Below are positions 819 through 28,470 of a DNA stretch of 64,000 nt, one piece after another. The stretch's first letter is position 1; each line of letters starts with the position of its first letter. The notes beneath the pieces are model-generated. The model saw nothing but the letters and a program-made list of their open reading frames with translations, ran no database searches and was not told the origin of the DNA. The position numbers and the translations under genes are program-made. This stretch comes from Octopus vulgaris (Eukaryota), in assembly GCA_951406725.2 (NCBI GenBank), contig OX597839.1, positions 36,332,001-36,396,000 on the forward strand, written 5' to 3'.

Positions 819-1483
819 TGCTGTCTGGTCACCATAATAAATCTGCTTCCATCAGTATGTCACTATCGCAGCCCACACCTTCCTCACGGACGTCTGAGAT
901 AATGAAGGGTTGGAGACAGTCGTCTCCTCCGCAGCCGTTAATCCGCAACAACTTTGCTCCGATTGCAATATCTCCGAGTCCATCGCCGACGTTGCACGCG
1001 ACCAATTTGTCGATCAATCACCAATCTACGTCTCAGCAGCCGGCCCAGCAACAGCACTCGGCGCAGTCCCTTGCTGCGCACCAACTGTTGCCTGGCAACC
1101 CTGCCCAGGCTCATACTCAACCTCCACAGCAACAACAACAACAACAGCAACAACAACAACAACCGCCGCCGCAACAGCAACCGGCGCCACCACAGCAGCA
1201 GCAGCAGCAACAACAGCAGCATATTGCTCGTTCCAGTCCAAACGTTCATCCCTGCTCTGTTGGTCCGTCTTCAGTGTCGTCCTCTTCCACATCCTCATCA
1301 TCGCCAGCCACATCAGTGTCTGTCACTGTTTCCTCCGCTCATCCTATGACAGTAGCATCGACTGCCCTCCAGATACAGCATCAACTGCAGGCCCAGCAAG
1401 CAGCTGCTGTAGCGCACCAACGAGACCGCGAAAGGGAGCCAGCACCAAACCAGTCTCCTGCTCATCAACCTTCTGGACACCAG
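819..1483 (+). CDS. spen: spen/SHARP internal coding exon (Q/P/S-rich low-complexity region); upstream exons lie outside the window
   Basis: Acceptor catttcAG at 817-818, donor CAG|GTAAGG at 1484. Open frame (xLSGHHNK...PSGHQ) is the genuine part of ORF 602..1546. Phase-0 end joins the 4451 exon in frame. Confidence 0.85.
1127..1219 (+). repeat. Coding CAA/CAG polyglutamine tracts in the spen exon
   Basis: Encodes QQQQQQQQQQQQPPPQQQPAPPQQQQQQQQQ. Confidence 0.9.
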
Positions 1484-1551
1484 GTAAGGGCCCTTTTTTT
1501 TTTTCACCCTAACTCTCTTCCCTTCATGCTTGAGGTTCTTTGTTAAATCAT

Positions 1552-1772
1552 CTCTCTTTTACTCTTTTACATGTTTCAGTCCTTTGACTGCGGCCATGCT
1601 GGAGCACCGTCTTTAGTCGAGCAACTCGACCCCGGGACTTATTCTTTTTGTAAGCCCATTACTTATTCTATCGGTCTCTTTTGCCGAACTGCTAAGTAAC
1701 GGGGACGTAAACACACCAGCATCGGTTGTCAAGCAATGCTAGGGAGACAAACACAGACACACAAACACACAC

Positions 1773-1805
<33 letters not shown>

Positions 1806-1962
1806 CGACAGGCTTCTTTCAGTTTCCGTCTACCAAATCCACTCACAAGGCATTGGTCGGCCCGGGGCTATAGCAGAAGACACTTGCCCAAGATGCCACG
1901 CAGTGGGACTGAACCTGGAACCATGTGGTTGGTTAGCAAGCTACTTACCACACAGCCATTCC
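1552..1962 (-). mobile_element. tRNA-derived CORE-type SINE, family A (octopus OR-like); further copies ~41-230, 6597-6970, 23295-23490, 28583-29000, 45055-45219 (-) and 21720-22088, 55652-56062 (+)
   Basis: Head ggctgtgtggtaag (A box)...ggttcagtccc (B box), CORE-like accttgggcaag, central (TA)n/(TG)n, tail gactgaaacaagtaaaagag. Many near-identical copies. Confidence 0.9.
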
Positions 1963-2461
1963 TTGCCCACAAGGGCCTAAACATAGAGGGGGCAAACAAG
2001 GACAGACACATGGATTAAGTCGATTACATCGACCCCAGTGTGTAACTGGTACTTAATTTATCTACCCTGAAAGGATGAAAGGCAAAGTCGACCTCGGCAG
2101 AATTTGAACTCACAATGTAACGACAGACGAAATACTGCTAAACATTTCGCCCGGCGTGCTAACGTATCTGCCAGCTCGCAGATATAAAATACTCTCAAAG
2201 AAGGGTACAACTCACACAAACACGTATGCATCACAGGCTTCTTTCAGTTTCCATCTACCAAATTTTCACTCACCAGGCTTTGATCAGCCTGCAGCTATAG
2301 TAGATGACAGTTGCCCAATGTGCCACGCAGTGGGACTGAACCTGAAACCATGTTCTTGGAAAGTGCACTTTTAATCACCCAACCATGCCTGTGTCTTCAC
2401 ACACACCATTTAACAGATGCTAAAGGAGGAGGAGGATGACATACATTTACTCATCTAACCG

Positions 2462-2918
2462 GCTTCCGTGCCAGTGGCACATAAAAGGCACCGTTCGAGT
2501 GTGATCGTTACCAGCGTCGCCTTATTGGCACTCGAGCCCCGTGCTAGTAGGGTGTTAAGAGCACCATTTGAGTGTGATCGTTGCCAGAGCGGCTATCTGG
2601 CCTCTGTGCCGGTGGCCTGTAAAAGACACTATTTGAGTGTGATCGTTACCAGCATCGTCTTACTGGCACCTGTGCCGGTGGAATGTTTAAAAGATTCGGG
2701 CGAGGTCATTGCCAGTACCGCCAGACTGGCCCTCATGCCAGTGGCACGTAAAAACCCCCACTATACTCTCGGAGTGGTTGGCGTTAGGAAGGGCATCCAG
2801 CTGTAGAAACTCTGCCAGATCAAGATTGAAGCCTGGTGCAGCCATCCGGTTTGCCAGCCCTCAGTCAAATCATCCAACCCATGCTAGCATGGAAAGCGGA
2901 CGTTAAACAATGATGGTG
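2462..2918 (+). mobile_element. RTE 3'-UTR/tail repeat; further copies ~8192-8342 (+), 19115-19285, 19397-19810, 56093-56300, 63157-63635 (-)
   Basis: ggcgttaggaagggcatccagctgtagaaac...catgctagcatggaaagcggacgttaaac(gat)n is shared with the RTE 3' UTR at 59810-60000. Confidence 0.85.
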
Positions 2919-3801
2919 ATATATTGTCAGCGTTTTATTTCCATTTTCCTAGTCTTGCATGGGTTGTGCTGGATTTCTCTAACACAGCATTTCATAACAT
3001 GTGGCTGCGAGCAAAGCAGCAGTGCACACCTACCTTATTCTTTACTGAACTTGTTGCTAAGTTACCTCACCTTGTTCACAGCATCCCAGTACATTGCTTG
3101 CATAGCTCTCACAATTTATTCATCTACACTTAGGCTTTCTAAGTGACCAACAGACTCCACATTGTGGAACTTTGTCAAAAGCTTTCTTCTGAGCTAAACT
3201 GCTCCTGCAGTGGCCTCTGTAAAAAGATTGTATTCATAATACTTTGGCCTGGTTCAAATGTAAACTGCATCTCATTTAAGCTAATTTTTGTTATAATTAA
3301 CTGTTCTGTTAGTTTTTTTTGTTGTTTTTATAACTTGGTCATCCAGTTTGATACTCTTGTAGTTTCTGCTTTTGAGATGACCGTCTCCTTTAAGCCTTGT
3401 AGTTCATGATGATGATGATGATAATGACAACACTGCTTATACAAGTTATTGAGAATAACACCTCTCTGTACTGTTTATTTCACTGTGCAGCTGACTTTTG
3501 TGTCCCCTATATTTTGACAAATGTTTCCTGTGTCTCAGCTGAAAGATTTGTTCACTTTTCCCTTCCTTTCATCTTAATAAACCTTCCCAACCCTGTTAGC
3601 CGTCAGCTGTTGGAATAGCATTTCTGTTGTCGTTCCTTCTTCTCTTTGTCAGTTATAATGTGAGTGTGTGGCTGTCAAGCTGGGCTCACGTTTTAGCCAA
3701 GGTTTTGTTTTGAAACTTGGAACATGCTGCAGAACATTAAGGAACCTCTTACTTGCAGGTTCTCTTTAATCTCTCTGTCTCTTTCCACACTCACACACAC
3801 A

Positions 3802-3835
<34 letters not shown>

Positions 3836-4450
3836 GTATCTATCTACACACACACACACACACAATAAGCAAAATTTCAGTTTCCAATTCTTTCTAAAAT
3901 AAAATTTCTTTCCAGGCCAGAATTTTGTTAATTTGTTCTTGATTTTTCATCTCTAATTCGATTTTGCAGTTGATTATGCCAAAAGACCCTCAGACACAAC
4001 CGTTTTATATTTAGAATTGTGTTATTTTCTGTTTTTTAAATTGCTTTCTTGTGAATCTTTGAAACAGTGAGCGTGAAACGATTTTGATTGTTTTCAAGAT
4101 GATCAGAAATTTTTAAAAATTGAAAAACCATTTCCCAAATATATTTGCAACCTGTAATATTGAAACAAAGAGATTCTCTTATGAAGTAAAATATTTAGTC
4201 ATTCATTTATATTTCAAACCAAAATTGTCCTCTTGTTGTTATTGTTGTTCTTACCAGTGAAGATGTGAAGATGACCCCTTCCCTATACACGATTAGTGTT
4301 TCTCTATATCTCCCTCACACACACCATCCTTCGGAAGCAGTTACAAAATTGTCCAATTGTTGCCATTGTTTATTTTCCTTTGTTGTAATGTTTTAATGTT
4401 GAAACTTGGAATTTAACAAAACTTAATCATAAATGTGTTTTTATTTCCAG

Positions 4451-5215
4451 TTGTCTTCGCAAGGAAATCATTCCCAGCATAATACTCCTGTTTCCGCTCA
4501 CCAGAGTCCATCTGTGGAGATGAGAACAGTGAGTTCAAGTGGAGCTGGTGGCGTTCATCGGCTCACTTACATTCTTGACAATAAGGCAAGCCAGCAGGCA
4601 TCAATGGAGGCTCGGCTCGCTCAGCTTTCTCAGTCATCTCATCCGTCTGTCTACCCAACCGACAGACGCGTAGAGAAGATAGCAACTACTCCAAGTGCTT
4701 TCTCGCCTCCGGCAGTCCATGAAGTCCAGCAGCCGTTCTATACAACAGACAACCTGCATGTCTCGCGCAGCATGCCCTTTCCACAGACCCATCTCCCTAT
4801 TCAAATGGGACGTCTACCTGTCGACCACGGGCTTGCTGTCTATGCTAACGCCCAACATGGCTTCATAACTGTACCAGAGGGCACCATCGTTCAAACTCAG
4901 GCACATCACCCCCATTATCAACACACGGGATACCTGAGTCAACAGCATGGCATGGGCCTAGAGCGGGTCGCTCTAGAATCTCGACCTCCGTCTAGGCCAC
5001 CATCTCGACCTGACAAACGGCCACCATCAAACCCCAACCAAGCCACTGGAGGTTCAACTGCAGTTGTAAAGGCCCACGTCCAGCAACCACCACCTGGATC
5101 ACCTGGTTTAGTCCATTCGGATGGTGTGAAGTTATTACACAGCAACTTGTCAGTAACACCACAGTCTATCGTTAATCCAAATTCCTTTGCCTATGATACA
5201 ATTGCTATGTTACAG
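4451..5215 (+). CDS. spen: spen coding exon (LSSQGNH...YDTIAMLQ), ends at the start of the SPOC domain
   Basis: tttccAG acceptor at 4449-4450, CAG|GTAAGT donor at 5216, phase 0/0. Terminal DTIAMLQ aligns with DMVQLLK, which precedes KYPIVWQG in human SPEN (recalled sequence). Confidence 0.9.
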
Positions 5216-5779
5216 GTAAGTCTTTCTTTCTTTCAAGTTTTTTTTAAAAAACAAACAAGAATTTGCTCTCTGAAGGGTTGCCTCTTGCCGTTATATTTTT
5301 GATTGCTTCCATGGCTTGAATAGACCCCCCCCTCTTTATCATTGTTTCATGTCCAATTTCTATGCTTGCATATGTATGGCAGAATTTGTTGGGGATTTTT
5401 TTTTTTACAGCTGGATGCCCTTCCTGTCCCCAACCTTCACCTGTTTTCAAGCCAAGTAATAGTTCACCAAGGTTGGACATGCTTTTCACAGAAGAATGGA
5501 AACAACACCATTTGTATGATGGTGCTTCTTGTTTACAACCATAATGTCAAAGCAAAGGTGTATACACACACCTTTAAGTTTCCATTTCCCAGATCTACTC
5601 ACCTTTGGTATGACAAATGTTATAAAAGTCATTTGCCCATGGTGCTGTACAGTGGGACTGAACCCAAGACCTTACGATTGGGAAGCAAGCTTCTTAACTA
5701 CACGGTTGTTAAATTTAATGTTCAATTCTTTGCCATCACTGTGGTATAAAATTAACTTTAAATCTTTCTTTTTTTTCAG

Positions 5780-5809
5780 ATGATTCATGAAGTTTCGTTT
5801 ACACAGAAG
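5780..5809 (+). CDS. spen: Candidate 30-nt microexon of spen (MIHEVSFTQK), probably alternative
   Basis: Polypyrimidine tract + cAG (5763-5779), 30 nt without a stop, AAG|GTAAGT donor at 5810. Phase 0/0 matches both neighbours. Confidence 0.65.
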
Positions 5810-7092
5810 GTAAGTGAAATATTAATTAGTTGATTAATAATCATTTAGTTACCTGTCACTATAGCACACTACCTTGTCATAGTTACACAATCTAGTCATG
5901 GTTATGTTTTTTGCACACTACCAAGTGATGGTCATCGGTCTCTGACCACAATCTCGTGATGGTTGCCTGTCTCTGACGTGACCTGGTGATTAACTGTCTC
6001 CAATTAACACACAAAATGGTCGATTCCTTTTAGAAAAGCATTATTAAAGATGTTATTAGCTTAGTTGAAGATTTGGTGTATTTGTGTAGTGCCAGGTCAG
6101 TTCTTATTATGCAGACTCAATGTGTTTACAAAAGATCCTTGACTCTGTGATGTTTCATCCTTTTAGCATTAAAACTGGCCTAAATATTCTAGAACCTGTT
6201 TTATGATCAAACTGGCCGGATCTGGCCTCTCACAGCTACCCTACAATGCCATTCTAAATATAAACAATGACATTTTTTGAAATCTTGCAGTATGAAATAA
6301 TTCATGATTAATACAAAATCAATGTGAATTAATAAGTATTAAATTTGCCAAATAAATCCGAGTGCTAAAGGGTTAATATTTGAAGTTTCTGCTTTATTTA
6401 AGGATCTGTTGTTGCAGTTGTTGTTTAAACTCAGGTCAATCCTGATTTAAGTGCACCAACATTTGATCAGGCATTGCGTCCAAACTCAGCTTGGACTATA
6501 TGATCGAATGTGTCCTTCCTTCCAATTTTTAAAAATGGAAGAATGTGATTCTGTAGAGACTGGCTGCTGTTTATGTCAAGTCAAGTGACCATACTCTACT
6601 CTCTCTTTTACTTGTTTCTGTCATTTGACTGCGGCCATGCTGGAGCACCACCTTTAGTCAAGCAAGTCTACCCCAGGACTTACTTGGTCTCTTTTGCCGA
6701 ACTGCTAAGTTACGGGGACGTAAATACCTCAGCATCGGTTTTCAAGCGATGTTGGGGGGGACAAACACAGACACACAAACATATACACACACATACATAT
6801 ATACATACGATGGGCTTCCTTCAGTTTCCGTCTACCAAATCCACTCACAAGGCCTTGGTTGGCCAGAGGCTATAGTAGAAGATACTTGCCCAAGGTGCCA
6901 TGCAGTGGGACTGAACCTGGAACCATGTGGTTGGTAAGCAAGCTACTTACCACACAGCCATTCCTGCGCCTATGTTGTAAAGAGACTTTTTCTACATGTA
7001 ATATACTGGGGTTCCCCAACTTAAGTTGTACCGTGTATGGTTTGTCTGATATTTGTAATCTAACCTAAAACTGTTTTTCTCTTTCTTTACAG

Positions 7093-7296
7093 AAATATGA
7101 AATAATGTGGCAAGGTCTTCTGGCATTGAAAAATGATAATGTAGTTGTGCAGATGCACTTAATGTCAGGAAATAGGCAGTTAATAGCACCATCTATGCCA
7201 CAGCTAGCTTCAGACTGCACCATGCAACCACTACGAATAAGCCAACGGATGCGCCTCGAGCCAATCCAGGTTGAAGGAGTGGCAAAACGGATGCAG
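7093..7296 (+). CDS. spen: spen SPOC domain exon 1 (KYEIMWQGLLALKND...LRISQRMRLEPIQVEGVAKRMQ)
   Basis: Matches SPOC motifs WQGLLALKND and LRIxQRMRLE of SPEN/SHARP. ttacAG acceptor, CAG|GTAAGT donor at 7297. Confidence 0.96.
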
Positions 7297-7412
7297 GTAA
7301 GTTATATTGACAGGTGAATGGGGTTGAATGGATAAGTCTACCAGTGTACAAGCTCATGTGCAAGAGATGTGGGTTGTGTCAGTGTGAGGAATCTTTAGTC
7401 TTGTCAAAGACA

Positions 7413-7625
7413 TTAGTTAGTTAGTTAATTTTGGCTCAAAAGCAAATAGCAAGGCCATGTAGGGGGACATGGACTTAAGTACAGGGTGGTGTTCATGTAA
7501 AGAGTTCAGGCCACTTGAGGTCAAGGGAGACTTTGAACAAAGCGGTCGTCGGCATCTTCACCATCTCGTCTGGCAGCTTGTTCCACGGATCTGCAACCTG
7601 GACGGAGATAGTGCTTGTGTCATGG
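7413..7625 (-). mobile_element. CR1-clade LINE 3' end in a spen intron
   Basis: SVQVADPWNKLPDEMVKMPTTALFKVSLD is a CR1/L2-type C-terminus; (TAAC)n tail. Confidence 0.8.
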
Positions 7626-8543
7626 TGGGGAAAAAAAACATCCAGTACATTCTGTAAAGTGGTCAGTGCAAGTGGATTATAAATTGCAGGATCCAACACA
7701 TTATAACTAGCAGCTACATCCAATATTGTGCGTGTGTTTCAATGTCTACCTTTCCATGCTGGCATGGGTGAGATGGAGTTTACTGTGGAAAATTTTCTAT
7801 GGCTGGATGCCCTTCTTGTCACCAACCCTTCTTTCTGAGCAAGATAGTATTTCCTCATGTTCGGATATGTTTTCTCAGAATATTGGAAATGAATGACACC
7901 GCTTGTGTGACAGTGATGCTCGTTTACATCATGTAACATCAAGACAGGGAGATATAAACTTAGACACACACATGATGGGCTATTTTTAGTTTCCAAATCT
8001 CTACTCACAAGGTTTTGATTGACCCAACGCTGTAGTAGACGACACTTGCCCAAGGGGTCACACTGGGACTAAACCCCAAACCATGTAGTTTTGAAGCAAA
8101 CCTCTGAACTTCACAGACATGACCGAGTCGTATGTGTGTGTGTGTGTGTGCATGCTTTACATAGGGCATCAGCACATTTGCTTTATATATGACACTCGCG
8201 GAGTGGTTGGCGTTAGGAAGGGCATCCAGCTCTAGAAACACTGCCAGATCAGACTGGAGCCTGGTGCAGCCCCTGGCTTCCCAGACCCCGGTCGAACCGT
8301 CCAACCCATGCTAGCGCGGAAAACGGACGTTAAACGATGATGCTGACACTGGCTTGGGTGCTTTCTAAGTGGTACTGGCACCTGTGAGCCCACAAGACGG
8401 ACTTTCAGCTGAGAGAGGGAGTGGAGAGCATAGCTGTAAAGGACATGCCTATGTATATGTGTTGTTTGTGTAAGTATGTATGTGGAAGGGGATAAAAAGT
8501 ATCAAGTTTAATGTGTTATTATTGTTTGGTGTTTTTTTTACAG

Positions 8544-8702
8544 TTGACGGAAGAGTATTGTATGCTGTTGGCCCTGCCTAATGGCCAAGACCATTTTGAA
8601 ATAATGCACCAAACTAGAGCTCTGAACAATGGTTTTATAAGTTACCTGAGCAGTAAGCAAGCTGCTGGAATCGTTAATGTGTCCAACCCAGAATCTCAGC
8701 AG
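8544..8702 (+). CDS. spen: spen SPOC domain exon 2 (LTEEYCMLLALP...FISYLSSKQAAGIVNVSNPESQQ)
   Basis: SPOC motif FIxYLxxKQAAGIxNV. tttacAG acceptor, CAG|GTATAC donor at 8703, phase 0/0. Confidence 0.96.
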
Positions 8703-9059
8703 GTATACTTCTTTTATAACATATTGTATTTATTTTGTGCTTTGTAATTTACACAAATCCCTTCAGCTGTAATTAGTGGCTAATTGATGATAATTGGTAA
8801 AATATCTTGATTATGGATGGCTGAAGGAGAAGGGTGGCAATATTATCTGATTTCAACCCAAGGCCAGAAATTTTAAGGGGAGACCCTTAATACTTGACTG
8901 GTTCTTTATTGTATTGACCCCCAAAAGGATGAGAGGCAAAGTTGACTTTGGCAGGATTTGAACTCAGAATGTAAAGTGCTGAAAGAAAAACTGCAAGGCA
9001 ACTCCAGTACATGATTAGTATTTTACCTGTCCGAGTCAGATGTCATGATTGATCGTTAG

Positions 9060-9224
9060 CCACTACACACATTTTTTTCTCTCCTTGTTTTTTCTGTGTC
9101 CCTTTCTGTAGAAGAGCGTAGGCTCGAAACGTTAAAGACTTGTTCTATTCCTGAGCGTTATACTAATACATCTGTTTGTTTTGTACACCACCTGTCTTCG
9201 CCTTTTATTTTTTTCGTAAACTCT

Positions 9225-9268
<44 letters not shown>

Positions 9269-9730
9269 CTTTACTACCCACAAGGGGCTAAACATAGAGG
9301 GGACAAACAAACGGATTAAGTCGATTCCATCGACCCCAGTGCGAAACTGGTACTTAATTTATCGACCCTGAAAGGATGAAAGGCAAAGTCGACCTCGGCG
9401 GAATTTGAACTCAGAACGTAACGGCAGACAAAATACGGCTACGCATTTCGCCCGGCGTGCTACCGTTTCTGCCAGCTCGCCGCCTTTATATATATATACA
9501 CATACACACACCATTAAAACTAAAGATACACCCATACACCACTAAAGATACATGCCTGTATATAGCCACTACACACATTTTTTTCTCTCCTTGTTTTTTC
9601 TGTGTCCCTTTCTGTAGAAGAACATAGGCTCGAAATGTAAAAGACTTTTTCTATTCCTGAGCGTTAAACTAATACATCTGTTTGTTTTGTACACCACCTG
9701 TCTTCGTCTTTTGTTTTTTTCGTAAACTCT

Positions 9731-9791
<61 letters not shown>

Positions 9792-10290
9792 CACCATTAA
9801 AACTAAAGATACACCCATACACCACTAAAGATACATGCCTGTATATAGCCACTACACACACCATGTTTCTCTCCTTGTTTTTTCTGTGTCCCTTTCTGTA
9901 GAAGAGCGTAGGCTCGAAACGTAAAAGACTTTTTCTATTCCTGAGCGTTATACTAATACATCTGTTTGTTTTGTACACCACCTGTCTTCGCCTTTTATTT
10001 TTTTCGTAAACTCTCCCTATATATATATATATATATATATATACATACACATACACACACCATTAAAACTAAAGATACACCCATACACCACTAAAGATAC
10101 ATGCCTGTATATAGCCACTACACACATTTTTTTTCTCTCCTTGTTTTTTCTGTGTCCCTTTCTGTAGAAGAACATAGGCTCGAAATGTAAAAGACTTTTT
10201 CTATTCCTGAGCGTTATACTAATACATCTGTTTGTTTTGTACACCACCTGTCTTCGTCTTTTGGTTTTTTTTCGTAAACTTTCCCTAGTA
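9060..10290 (+). repeat. Tandem array of four ~270-bp Penelope-tail/retrozyme-like units with hammerhead-like motifs, in the last spen intron
   Basis: Units start (ccactacacac) at 9060, 9566, 9849 and 10115. Each contains ctttCTGTAGAAGAGCGTAGGCTCGAAACGT(T/A)aaag or a mutated version and an internal (TA)n. Unit 1 carries a SINE insertion. Confidence 0.85.
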
Positions 10291-10396
10291 TTTTACTTGG
10301 TTTGATATATTTCTTCATTTGACCCAAGAAAAAAATAGAAATCTTATTAGTTCAGCCTGTGATTCTAATAATTATCTCCTTTGTATTTTTTTTCAG

Positions 10397-10525
10397 CCTG
10401 CTTATGTCGTCCATATTTTCCCACCATGCGAGTTTTCTCGCCTGAAACTACGAGAGGCCGGATTTGAATTGATGAACCAAGTGTCTGACTTTGCTCATCT
10501 TGTGATTGTGATTACCACGGTCTAG
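10397..10525 (+). CDS. spen: spen terminal coding exon (PAYVVHIFPPCEFS...HLVIVITTV*)
   Basis: Matches the SPEN C-terminus PAYVLQIFPPCEFS...HLMIVIASV. tttcAG acceptor at 10395-10396, TAG at 10523-10525. Confidence 0.96.
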   Translation, partial: PAYVVHIFPPCEFSRLKLREAGFELMNQVSDFAHLVIVITTV

Positions 10526-24436: not shown

Positions 24437-24472
<36 letters not shown>

Positions 24473-24988
24473 ACACTAAAAAAAAATGGATAAAAAAGCA
24501 CCATAAAATTAATAGCTATCGTAATCTTTTTAGAAAAATGAATTTGTTTTCACCAGACCTTCCAACCGGTTTTCCTCTATATTTGTGACATTTCCTCGGC
24601 TTTCAAATAGAGTCAAGTCACTTGCTGTGACATAAAATGAATGTCCTGACCAGGTGTAGCTAATCCCAGCCATCCGATCAGAACACAGAACAGGGCAAAT
24701 AATCATAACTATGGATGCTGTGTTCGTGCTGGTTTCAACATCGTTTACAATTGCAACTTAAAGAGATTCCGAACAGAAATCGAAACCGCAATTCACGGAC
24801 ACCATTTGCTGTTTGTTTAGCTATCACAAAGAAATACAACAAAGATTAAATACTAACCACTATGGGACCTCGACATGGTATATCTACTAGAAACAATAGT
24901 CACGTCTCCCTCATATTTCACCTTATTGCCTTACTAAAACAAAACAAAACAAAAAAATCGGAACACGGAATAGCACGAGATATGTCTG

Positions 24989-25222
24989 GGATCTTTTCCT
25001 TTTGATGGACGGAATTCAACACAATTTCTAGTTAACTAAACAATTTGAAACTTCGTATACTGGTAGAATGTGTCAAAAGAAAACATTATTTTCATTTTCC
25101 GTCCATCAAAAGGAAAGGATCCTAATGTTTTCTTTTGACACATTCTACCAGTATACGAAGTTTCAAATTGTTTAGTTAACTAGAAATTGTGTTGACATGT
25201 GCCGTTCAAAAGGAAAAGATCC
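24989..25222. mobile_element. Merlin-like MITE with perfect internal 73-bp inverted repeat
   Basis: Exact 8-bp TSD TATGTCTG (24981-24988, 25223-25230). TIR GGATCTTTTCCTTTTGA. GG termini with an 8-bp TSD suggest Merlin (inference). Confidence 0.88.
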
Positions 25223-25391
25223 TATGTCTGAATAAAAACTGAAATGTTCCTGACTGGAATGTGTTATCATAGATTGACCAGGTCAAGGCTGACCTGGGGC
25301 TAAACAACTGTGGTTAAAGGGTTCATCAATAATTTAAGATTTATAACAAAAACATTGACTGCAGAGACTTGAATTAAATTTGCTCGGTGCG

Positions 25392-27251
25392 CTACCATTC
25401 AGCATCTCCGACTGCCTTAGAGAACAACATATCTCGACCAAACAGGTTCAAAATGCCGTCTTTTAACTGAAACTTCCATTTGTTTTTAATGCGAGAAATT
25501 TTCACAAACTGGCAGACGATAACGTTTTCTGATTCGAACATGGCGCAGATGTCTGCATCGCTGTCGTCGTCCGCGGTATTTAACGGGTCGGATTCAATAC
25601 CAATGTCTACAATTGCTTCGTCAATTTCATCGCTTATGTTGCTACTTCCAGATTCGCTGCTGCTATCTTCATCTTTGCTTGTGTTGTTGTTGTCAGAGGA
25701 AGAAGTTGAACCAGTGTTCTCACCATCACATTGACGAGACATATTCAAATATTTTCTTTTGACCCTGACTGAAGACACGTTTGTGCCATTGCCCAAATTA
25801 TGTCCAGATAGGTCCTCTATTTCTGCGTCAGTAGTTCCGTCCATTTGTAAAATTTCTTCTATAGTTTTCATATCTTCCTCACTTAACTGACATATTTTTC
25901 CGACTCCACTTCCTTTACAAGAATTATCCGAAGACGATGCCACAGACATGATGGAGGTCTGGCCCAGTGAGTCATTTAACAAAGTAGGTTTATTATTATT
26001 ATTATTGTTATTATTGGCGGTGGTGGTATCAGCTGGAGGAAATTTAGGGTGTTCATCTGGAATGTAACTTTGACAATTTTGCGAAAGTGGGCCAGATATA
26101 TCCTCGAGAAAATCTTCTAGAGTGGACGGAGTGTTGTCTACCGACGTTCTACTCTCGTCGTAAAAAGGAGGCAATGGTTTAACTACAGGGTAACCTGTAA
26201 AGTTATCTTGGTGGGAAAGTGAAGAGACGGGAAGACGATTGGGCTGATTCGAACTGCAAAAGTAATTCTGCTCCAGATTTCCTCCGTGACAAGATGGAGC
26301 AAAAGAGGAGATTCGAGAAGTTAAAAATTCACTGTTCGCTTTACTGGTTTCTGCTTGTGTGGTTATTAAACTCTTCTGTGCCTGCTGAACCGAGTTACTA
26401 TCGTTTTTCTCAGAAATGCCACAGCGGGTCCCGTTGTTTGGTCCAGCATCTCCAAGTAGTTCACTTCCATTTGTTGACAACTGACCAACAGGGTCATTTG
26501 CATTGCTGTTGTCATTATTATTCTGTTCCTTGGCAGAATTAACGTTTGTATGTACAGCAGCCGTGCTAGAAATAACTCGGTCGGTAGCATTAGACAGAGA
26601 GGAACTAGTCGTAGTCGGTGCAGTACTTTCACTAATTACAGCAACGTTTAATGGTAAAGGGGTTTTGGTAGCCGGGCCGTGTAATTTGGAAGGCGATCTT
26701 CCAGCTTGGTAAATGGAAGGCAAATTGAAATTTGAAGGAGGACACCGAGAAGTCGGTTTGTTGTTATCGTTAACAGAATGGGACTCACCTGAATTTTCAG
26801 ATGTCCAAGCAGTAGGAACTGGCTGCAGTAGATGTTGTTCTGGCGGGAGAATAGCCAAAAAATGTCCATTACGGTTACGTTGAAGAGAGATTCCGGCATT
26901 ATTTAAATCCCTGATTTGCTGGTTGTAAAGTCCATACGGAAGGGCTATGGTAGCAGTCGTACAAGAACTTCGTGGTCCGCGCATGCGAGGCCCTGCCAAA
27001 TGAATAGAAGGAACAAATAGTTCAGAATTGTTGTTGCTACACGCAGGAGAAATAATTCCATAACCATCAACATTTGTTCGGTTTACTTTAGAAAATTCAA
27101 ACACTTTAGAATCGTGGATTTTCTTTAACCACGCTTCTTTCATGTCCGTAAGAACAGTTTCATCGATACCTTCTTCTATAAATAGTTCGCGGCTGGACTG
27201 AACAACATCTTCTACGACACTTTTATAGAATTTAGCAACAGGGTCGCTCAT
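25392..27251 (-). CDS. GTF2A1-like: Intronless TFIIA large subunit (alpha/beta precursor)-like protein, 619 aa; probable retrogene paralog
   Basis: N-term VAKFYKSVVEDVVQSSRELFIEEGIDETVLTDMKEAWLKKI is the TFIIA alpha helical domain. C-term ENVIVCQFVKISRIKNKWKFQLKDGILNLFGRDMLFSKAVGDAEW is the TFIIA beta-barrel. Also has a taspase-type site QMDGTTD and an acidic region. Single uninterrupted 1860-nt ORF. Confidence 0.95.
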   Translation of the reverse strand: MSDPVAKFYKSVVEDVVQSSRELFIEEGIDETVLTDMKEAWLKKIHDSKVFEFSKVNRTNVDGYGIISPACSNNNSELFVPSIHLAGPRMRGPRSSCTTATIALPYGLYNQQIRDLNNAGISLQRNRNGHFLAILPPEQHLLQPVPTAWTSENSGESHSVNDNNKPTSRCPPSNFNLPSIYQAGRSPSKLHGPATKTPLPLNVAVISESTAPTTTSSSLSNATDRVISSTAAVHTNVNSAKEQNNNDNSNANDPVGQLSTNGSELLGDAGPNNGTRCGISEKNDSNSVQQAQKSLITTQAETSKANSEFLTSRISSFAPSCHGGNLEQNYFCSSNQPNRLPVSSLSHQDNFTGYPVVKPLPPFYDESRTSVDNTPSTLEDFLEDISGPLSQNCQSYIPDEHPKFPPADTTTANNNNNNNNKPTLLNDSLGQTSIMSVASSSDNSCKGSGVGKICQLSEEDMKTIEEILQMDGTTDAEIEDLSGHNLGNGTNVSSVRVKRKYLNMSRQCDGENTGSTSSSDNNNTSKDEDSSSESGSSNISDEIDEAIVDIGIESDPLNTADDDSDADICAMFESENVIVCQFVKISRIKNKWKFQLKDGILNLFGRDMLFSKAVGDAEW

Positions 27252-27298
27252 ACTCCGAGGATTCGAAGAAACTCTTTCACCTGTGTCCTGTGTCCCTG

Positions 27299-27367: not shown

Positions 27368-27510
27368 GAGGGAGGAAATGTTTTTAAAGAAAGTTGTCGA
27401 CTGTAGCAAATATATTATTCCATTAATGAAACATATTTTCGTTATCTTCATTTTTACGTCGTTTATGAACCATTTTTATTCATTACAAACAACTGTGGTC
27501 GTGAAGAGCT

Positions 27511-28057
27511 GGCAAGACCCCCTCCCAAACCACCCTTAAAATTTTTTTTTTCGACACAACCCCACCTCTTTTCGGCTACGGGGAATACGAATCTGCAAAA
27601 AAAGAATTGGCCAAAGATTGACATTTCTAAATTACCACCCCCATTTCCTTCATTTTAAACTTTTTCCCTTTTTTTTTAATATGCGGAAAAATACGGAGAT
27701 TATGATTCTAAAAAAAAAAAAAAATTTCCAAAAATCTTTGTAAAATTTTTTTAAAGAATTTTTTTTCTAAATATGCAGGAAAATACGGGCATCATGATTC
27801 GGACAAAACTTTCAAAACATTTCTGTACTTACGGTTGGGGTTTTAGGGTTAGGCTTAGGGTTTTAGGGTTAAGATTAGGGTTTTAGGGTTAAGGTATTAG
27901 GGTTTTAGGGTTAGGGTTGTAGGGTTAGTGTTGGGGAAAAAAGTCAAAATTGAAGGGGAGAAAAATTTCACAATACCGATTTTTGGCAAAAAAAAAAAAA
28001 TTACAAAAATAAAGAGATTTGGGAGAAAATGGGGTGAGAGTGGGCAGAAGTCTTTCC
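27511..28057. mobile_element. Merlin-like non-autonomous DNA transposon carrying degenerate TTAGGG repeats
   Basis: Exact 8-bp TSD GAAGAGCT (27503-27510, 28058-28065). Imperfect TIR GGCAAGAC.../GGAAAGAC.... Confidence 0.75.
27833..27935 (+). repeat. Interstitial degenerate telomeric-type (TTAGGG)n tract
   Basis: Repeated ttaggg/ttttaggg/ttagggtt units. Confidence 0.9.
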
Positions 28058-28470
28058 GAAGAGCTTGTCAGTCTACATTCAGAAATAGATTCTGCAATAT
28101 GTTTCGGCTTAAAAAATACTCAACCCAATCTACGTAACTGCAAGTAAGTGGGGTCCTGAATTGGCTGTCGGATGCAGCAGAAGGTCAATTCATAAAAAGT
28201 TCATGGAATAAATAAATTACAGTGAATTGAGTTGTGTAGAGCGAACCAAAGACTCGGACACTTGTCTGGGAGAGAAAGAGTAGGGGAGGGGAGAAAGTTT
28301 AGTAGTGGGGGTAAATCACCAATGAAGGGGACAATACGAGAGGAGGAGGGAGAAACATACAGTGTTTATGAAGTAGGGAGGAGTGTGAGTAGAGGGATAT
28401 GGGAAGGTGGGAAACAAGAGAGAGGGTGGGGGGTATAAGTTAGTAGCAGAGAGACAGAGATCAGAGGTCA

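Follow-up and report, generated by a model that had tools for sequence, protein, structure and literature searches.

A single-exon TFIIA alpha/beta paralogue in Octopus vulgaris, probably of independent cephalopod origin, with a proposed role in germ cells

We describe here a second TFIIA alpha/beta (TFIIA-L) gene of Octopus vulgaris, which is almost certainly a functional paralogue and was probably derived independently in cephalopods. Our preferred reading, to which we assign a probability of roughly 0.55, is that this 619-aa protein goes back to a retroposition in an early coleoid and would replace the ordinary TFIIA-L in germ cells, in the manner of vertebrate ALF. The literature searched, which lay outside subscription journals and supplements, contained no description of a cephalopod TFIIA paralogue. 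All positions refer to the window, the whole 64-kb stretch of DNA that was analysed.

The gene and its surroundings

25392..27251, minus strand: single-exon TFIIA-L (alpha/beta) paralogue of 619 aa, by open reading frame, Pfam and PDB match
24989..25222, no strand assigned: high-copy inverted repeat with 109-nt arms (90%), 170 nt past the stop codon
24342..24436, no strand assigned: local 95-bp copy (94%) of bases 26402-26496 of the reading frame

The frame runs from an ATG to a TAG without an internal stop, and the intact single-exon gene recognised in an earlier note on this DNA is thus confirmed. The protein matches the Pfam TFIIA family (PF03153) with an E of 1.3e-47 and 164 bits against a curated cut-off of 36.2, and its top PDB match is human TFIIA alpha/beta (E 2.8e-33), in an alignment that spans both ends. 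The closest named protein relative is from Octopus bimaculoides (87%), and the names given to such long proteins in databases are TFIIA subunit 1 or serine-rich protein. An N-terminal extension as in the 671-aa RefSeq model of O. bimaculoides was rejected, since it lacks conservation and a stop lies 16 codons above the ATG in the frame studied here.

The gene had been described as adjoining intron-rich genes. One such neighbour exists, a gene of the spen/SHARP type with a SPOC match at E 1.2e-12. Its final coding exon reaches to position 10522 (+), about 15 kb away and tail to tail with the TFIIA-L copy, but no second gene was seen on the opposite flank within the 64-kb window. Nesting of the copy inside spen was rejected because it is located 15 kb past the spen end. 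The 3' part of spen/SHARP occupies 857-10522 (+), and upstream of the window the gene has one open frame some 4,380 codons long.

The inverted repeat is a MITE-like hairpin that is very deep in public contigs and may fall within the 3' UTR of the TFIIA-L copy. The 95-bp copy is the sole other match in the genome of its source piece, lies 2 kb downstream of it and ends at a (TA)n run. A degenerate TTAGGG-like array was observed at 27835-27946, some 600 bases before the ATG.

Parent gene and origin

The window belongs to contig C26. Searching the 2.8-Gb genome with both protein ends returned one other TFIIA-L locus, on contig C11 (40,656,622-40,702,030), while the weaker hits on C1, C10 and C20 proved on inspection to be noise. 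Rebuilt with a named Argonauta protein as guide, this gene comprises 9 exons over 45 kb and encodes 303 aa, with GT-AG at every junction, the exon 4/5 junction being possibly off by a few residues. It shares 272 of 308 residues with the named Argonauta TFIIA-L and has the usual C-terminal motif and a single Q-x-D-G site. The paralogue with an intron-containing parent elsewhere that the earlier note had envisaged is thereby established, and the case that the 619-aa frame is the only TFIIA-L gene did not hold.

All 8 parental introns, some of which fall inside both conserved domains, are missing from the copy, whose frame runs unbroken across every junction position. Because the parent has eight introns and the copy has none, this is the signature of a retrocopy; retroposition is very probably how the gene arose, and it likely dates back to an early ancestor of the coleoids. 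A duplicate made at the DNA level that later shed all eight introns is possible but less economical. Neither AATAAA nor ATTAAA occurs in the 990 bases past the stop codon, and poly(A) or target-site marks are not expected at such an age. With canonical TFIIA-L/GTF2A1 (PF03153; 1NVP, 1NH2; the C11 parent) the copy has in common the N-terminal helix pair, the C-terminal three-stranded sheet, the basic cluster, the terminal Trp, the Q-x-D-G motif and an acidic stretch; it differs from its parent in being twice as long, in its lack of introns and in its terminal domains, where 62 of 112 positions are identical.

The absence of introns says little by itself about specialisation here, because the only Taspase1 gene of the genome is intronless as well. 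It is a single open frame of 378 aa with an intact catalytic D/T (L033:1267-2430, minus strand, equivalent to G000:C4:107195779-107196942), from which it follows that wholesale intron loss occurs in this genome. No intron-containing Taspase1 copy was found in the genome, and the single-frame gene is possibly a retrocopy that replaced its parent. Glycosylasparaginase-like exons were seen twice in tandem at G000:C5:51.18-51.22 Mb.

Orthologues, age and rate of evolution

Orthologues of the long form were found in O. bimaculoides (617 aa) and in three distant sequence clusters, whose proteins of 796-864 aa stand at about 41% to the 619-aa protein in word-based searches and appear to come from squid- or cuttlefish-type animals. 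For one of these distant forms, the call on a 701-kb contig suggests a single exon there. A profile search of 1.84 billion representatives yielded 1655 matches at E<=0.001, of which 3 were full-length (630-1216 bits), the fourth match scoring 189 bits. Searches that did return the Argonauta short form turned up no Argonauta long form.

The gene tree groups the five long forms in one clade (99/100), the shape of which mirrors that of the short cephalopod-type copies; their deep placement, in contrast, was not settled by five tree builds. A duplication confined to Octopus, in which the long Octopus pair is forced together with the octopod short pair, was rejected (p-AU 1.5e-8). Furthermore, a four-residue gap in the middle motif is present in 4 of 4 short cephalopod-type copies and in 0 of 5 long forms, and the split between long and short forms thus predates this deletion. 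Judged from these comparisons, the long copy is much older than Octopus.

The terminal domains of the long form evolved faster than those of the parent. Between the 619-aa copy and the distant long forms 76-77 of 112 positions are identical, in comparison to 96-97 of 112 between the parent and the distant short forms over a similar-looking distance. The stem of the long clade has a length of 0.84 versus 0.14 for the short copies, and the Octopus branch 0.39 versus 0.14.

The expanded linker

25887..26831, minus strand: expanded low-complexity linker, aa 141-455, predicted disordered and fast evolving
26091..26123, minus strand: family-specific acidic amphipathic motif 1, aa 377-387, with an LEDF core
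25827..25886, minus strand: second family-specific acidic amphipathic motif, continuing into Taspase1-type site 1, aa 456-475, Q469-M-D-G-x-x-D475
25713..25733, minus strand: Taspase1-type site 2, Q507-C-D-G

The conserved ends and the long serine-, asparagine- and proline-rich linker first noticed in the sequence were both recovered: the ends align to human TFIIA, and S, N and P make up 36.8% of aa 141-455, a segment predicted with a pLDDT below 50. Over aa 141-375, 32 of 235 positions are invariant in five orthologues. Motif 1 is present in all five long forms scored and in none of the 190 other TFIIA-L proteins, with a hydrophobic moment at the 95th-100th percentile of its own linker and a net charge of -3 or -4. 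Motif 2 has 13 of 20 positions invariant in the five orthologues, and its helix pattern is likewise found in 5 of 5 long forms and 0 of 190 others. AlphaFold places both acidic motifs below a pLDDT of 50, and an ESM Atlas search with aa 360-520 gave no usable match; we take these motifs to resemble activation-domain or docking helices. As far as the alignments indicate, the distinctive, family-specific conserved features of the long form sit in the linker.

Site 1 fits the Taspase1 consensus except at P2, where Octopus has Met and the other long forms have Phe or Leu; the consensus as given in the cited passages has F, I, L or V at this position, with Met outside it (PMC3102056, PMC9121324). 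Site 1 resembles the verified Taspase1 sites of TFIIA and of REV3L to the extent that the sources quoted present them (PMC13408197 for REV3L), and Taspase1 cleavage is stated in the cited section to govern how stable TFIIA is and where it is located in human cells (PMC5668323). Site 2 is off-consensus and decayed in Octopus and consensus-like in the distant orthologues, with 4 of 5 positions invariant, and the distance from site 1 to the next Q-x-D-G is 38 residues in Octopus and 183-225 in the distant forms. The doubled Taspase1 motif was considered as a novelty and rejected. It is recurrent rather than special, because 46 of the 190 other TFIIA-L carry two Q-x-D-G, in a set that the query profile biases towards two-site proteins, and this count suggests repeated doubling of the site across many animal lineages.

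Proposed role

As germ-cell replacement, the long form would pair with TFIIA-gamma via both terminal domains, would clamp TBP or TRF2 together with upstream promoter DNA in the normal way and would be cut by Taspase1 at site 1. Its specificity would come from its expression pattern and from the two new acidic amphipathic linker motifs, and a new exposed Phe, F604, would add to the docking surface. The motifs and F604 would dock partners that the 303-aa parent cannot bind. The long form would take over from the 303-aa TFIIA-L in a particular cell type, which from precedent only would be the germline.

The cited passages describe ALF as germ-cell specific and as binding TRF2 (PMC3142196, PMC5006001); in vertebrate germ cells it stands in for the ordinary TFIIA-L, joins gamma and TBP or TRF2 and undergoes Taspase1 processing. 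They describe Moonshiner as a TFIIA-L paralogue acting in the fly germline (PMC12992792, PMC7586837), where it forms a complex with TFIIA-S and TRF2 that is recruited by Rhino/Deadlock to piRNA loci (PMC12992792). Because both are germline TFIIA-L paralogues, we lean by analogy towards a germline-biased use of the long octopus form. Like ALF/GTF2A1L (433-501 aa), it is encoded by a second TFIIA alpha/beta gene, is longer than the somatic copy, keeps both terminal domains and the cleavage motif and is faster evolving. ALF is multi-exon, whereas the octopus copy has a single exon, belongs to long forms of 617-864 aa with two family-specific acidic motifs and, to go by its mollusc-type middle motif, is of separate origin. 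Moreover, germline expression and TRF2 binding have been shown for ALF and are predictions for the octopus copy.

It is rather unlikely, although well worth weighing, that the paralogue serves embryos, neurons or other soma, or acts as a broad, low-level and partly redundant TFIIA-L. None of the sequence evidence for function favours one tissue over another, and 19 of 24 listed public sequencing runs from 7 studies, of kinds guessed or unknown and none recorded as RNA, hold part of the stretch. Run X17 covers the frame at a depth of 29-54 and lacks cover at 24470-24868, 27396-27661 and 28061-28440, while X1-X3 cover the frame piecewise at a depth of 3-5 and X2 covers the flanks also; such contigs show neither level nor RNA origin. 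Five runs with the same species label contained next to none of the words of the stretch, which is no proof of absence. What speaks for germ cells is that the two TFIIA-L paralogues described in animals both act in the germline, that retrogenes are often testis-biased and that evolution faster than that of the parent fits a restricted role better than redundancy.

We consider it improbable that the long form is a Moonshiner-like adaptor, whose linker motifs would tether TFIIA-gamma and TRF2 to chromatin-bound factors at piRNA loci or heterochromatin. Such an adaptor would be in line with the two conserved acidic amphipathic motifs absent from the 190 other TFIIA-L, with the bursts of change on the stem and the Octopus branch and with the presence of a TRF2 gene in the genome, and like Moonshiner the octopus protein is a TFIIA-L paralogue of one lineage that exists alongside the canonical copy in an animal with TRF2. 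However, its partners and any link to piRNA factors are hypothetical, and the long form retains the full canonical promoter-contact set and the cleavage site. Moonshiner is short and uncleaved, whereas the octopus protein is expanded and keeps its Taspase1-type sites.

The genome searches found one TBP-type and one TRF2-type gene and one match each for TAF12 and TAF7, all of these counts being lower bounds. Within these bounds no co-duplicated TBP, TRF2, TAF7 or TAF12 was seen, and there is thus no sign of a whole duplicated germline initiation complex. Pfam searches of the genome, which are blind to short exons, gave 0 matches for TFIIA-gamma. A more specific version of the germ-cell replacement can be proposed only tentatively, in which a germline TFIIA evolved independently for a third time, as a coleoid retrogene with activator-like acidic docking motifs. 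Released or exposed by Taspase1 cutting, these motifs would let it drive a gonad programme (or transcription of piRNA sources) together with the ordinary TBP/TRF2 and without the duplication of any further basal factor.

Terminal domains and promoter contacts

27084..27251, minus strand: helical domain at the N-terminus, aa 1-56, with helices at 4-26 and 31-47, by AlphaFold and superposition on 1NVP
25395..25607, minus strand: C-terminal three-stranded beta domain, aa 549-619, by model and Foldseek match to 1NVP
25503-25505 and 25440-25442, minus strand: rare residues V583 and F604

By its likeness to 1NVP, the N-terminal domain is predicted to be the TFIIA-gamma-pairing half of the four-helix bundle (pLDDT 81-92 for aa 11-50; rmsd 0.6 A to 1NVP chain B). 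The C-terminal sheet is modelled with strands at 576-588, 591-603 and 606-618 and an rmsd of 1.4 A to 1NVP, and the Foldseek matches of the model are 1NVP chains B and C. The basic cluster R587/K589/K591/K593 (25473-25493) and W619 are intact. Counted back from the aligned terminal Trp, with no gap assumed over 46 columns, K584, I585, R587, K589, K591, K593 and W619 correspond to K250, V251, R253, K255, R257, K259 and W285 of yeast Toa1. In the part of the literature cited, replacing the K250/V251 pair or the four basic residues by alanine is lethal, and DNA contacts at TATA are described for them (PMC10716077), and W285A is listed as a growth-defect allele (PMC2275077).

Altered contacts with TBP and DNA, as put forward in the earlier note, are not supported by the sequence, because all of these mapped contact residues are kept. 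The motif that it had called usually conserved (aa 580-592) proved to be the human wording. Among 190 other TFIIA-L proteins fetched, 185 matched the anchoring pattern; V583 is indeed found in 0 of these, but F582 occurs in 47, S586 in 14 and I588 in 9, which makes three of the four flagged changes common ones. Among the 181 with a tail of equal length, F604 occurs in 0 and L601 and M608 in 1 each. F604 is common to the whole long clade, whereas V583 and L601 are Octopus-only, and the distant orthologues carry the common E in place of V583. From the modelled strand limits and the superposition on 1NVP, F604 would lie far from the DNA-contacting hairpin, in the turn between strands 2 and 3 at the opposite end of the sheet, possibly as a new exposed hydrophobic spot away from the contacts. 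Despite these rare residues, a factor with changed TBP/DNA contacts that reads different promoters or competes for them is very unlikely, given the retained contacts, the restriction of V583 to Octopus and the probable position of F604.

The middle motif and the relation to ALF

26850..26957, minus strand: middle motif of mollusc type, aa 99-134, predicted as a small beta-alpha-beta-beta unit and taken over from the parent gene

This motif scored 32-43 bits on a gastropod-type profile of 4 sequences in comparison to 2-5 bits on a vertebrate profile of 6 sequences, and the best outside matches to the long clade's own middle motif are mollusc-type. Its predicted fold reaches a pLDDT of 58-76, which is moderate confidence, and a fold prediction of the motif has a mean pLDDT of 49. 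These 36 residues form a conserved motif shared by mollusc TFIIA-L proteins (P0042-P0045, P0054), within a linker supposed to be featureless. Babylonia areolata has two distinct TFIIA-L-like proteins of 307 and 263 aa (P0043, P0044), and a separate gastropod duplication is possible there.

The trees were built with some rows omitted (u55 as a long row, the vertebrates in one build, the long rows in a control). With vertebrates included, the long clade joins the vertebrate rows (82/86 and 93/88, not starred and with a long-branch warning), and with vertebrates left out it is sister to the short cephalopod-type copies (85/78, not starred). Grouping the long forms with the short cephalopod copies was not rejected (p-AU 0.15, 0.07 and 0.44). 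In the control without long rows the short cephalopod copies join the vertebrates too, and that level of the tree is thus noise. Because trees with vertebrates draw the clade to them, it is the middle motif and not the tree that carries the case for its independence from ALF; descent from the vertebrate ALF duplication is not borne out by the motif, and the tree neither shows nor rejects it. The motif speaks for an origin separate from that of ALF and, together with the lost parental introns, supports the independent cephalopod retrogene suggested at the outset. That the long clade is instead an ALF orthologue or a copied vertebrate mRNA, to which the pull towards the vertebrate rows and a few shared C-terminal residues (R606, S611) might point, is hardly credible in view of the bit scores, the mollusc-type matches, the unrejected grouping with the short copies and the control.

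Purifying selection

Run X17, from a close relative (organism B), provided two contigs spanning 25193-27265, for which the full list of differences was taken, minus a short repeat at 25982-26027. There are 38 differences from the frame, 21 synonymous and 17 replacement, and the sole indel within the frame is 3 nt long. This corresponds to a pN/pS of 0.23 with equal rates and 0.31 with a transition bias of 4 (p 8e-6 and 4e-4). Outside aa 141-455 we counted 10 synonymous and 1 replacement difference, and inside it 11 and 16 (pN/pS 0.44-0.59, p 0.03-0.13). A-to-I editing was rejected as a cause of these differences, with no excess of the relevant changes (T>C 10, A>G 6, G>A 11, C>T 7); editing would only add replacements. 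The 619-aa gene is under purifying selection, and for its terminal parts neutral evolution is refuted. A processed pseudogene or neutrally drifting copy, which the near-neutral linker and the long branches of the clade might suggest, has next to no chance against a substitution pattern of this kind and an open frame of 617-864 aa in every relative found.

Significance

The long form is an old, overlooked basal-factor paralogue, for which a germline role and a linker function are proposals. Because its contact surfaces are kept while its linker is new, it would allow a direct test of whether specificity evolves in the TFIIA linker, which is usually treated as dispensable. If the gene is gonad-biased, it would represent the third independent germline duplication of TFIIA-L after ALF and Moonshiner, in a third branch of the animal superphyla, and TFIIA would be the place where germ cells have repeatedly rewired initiation.
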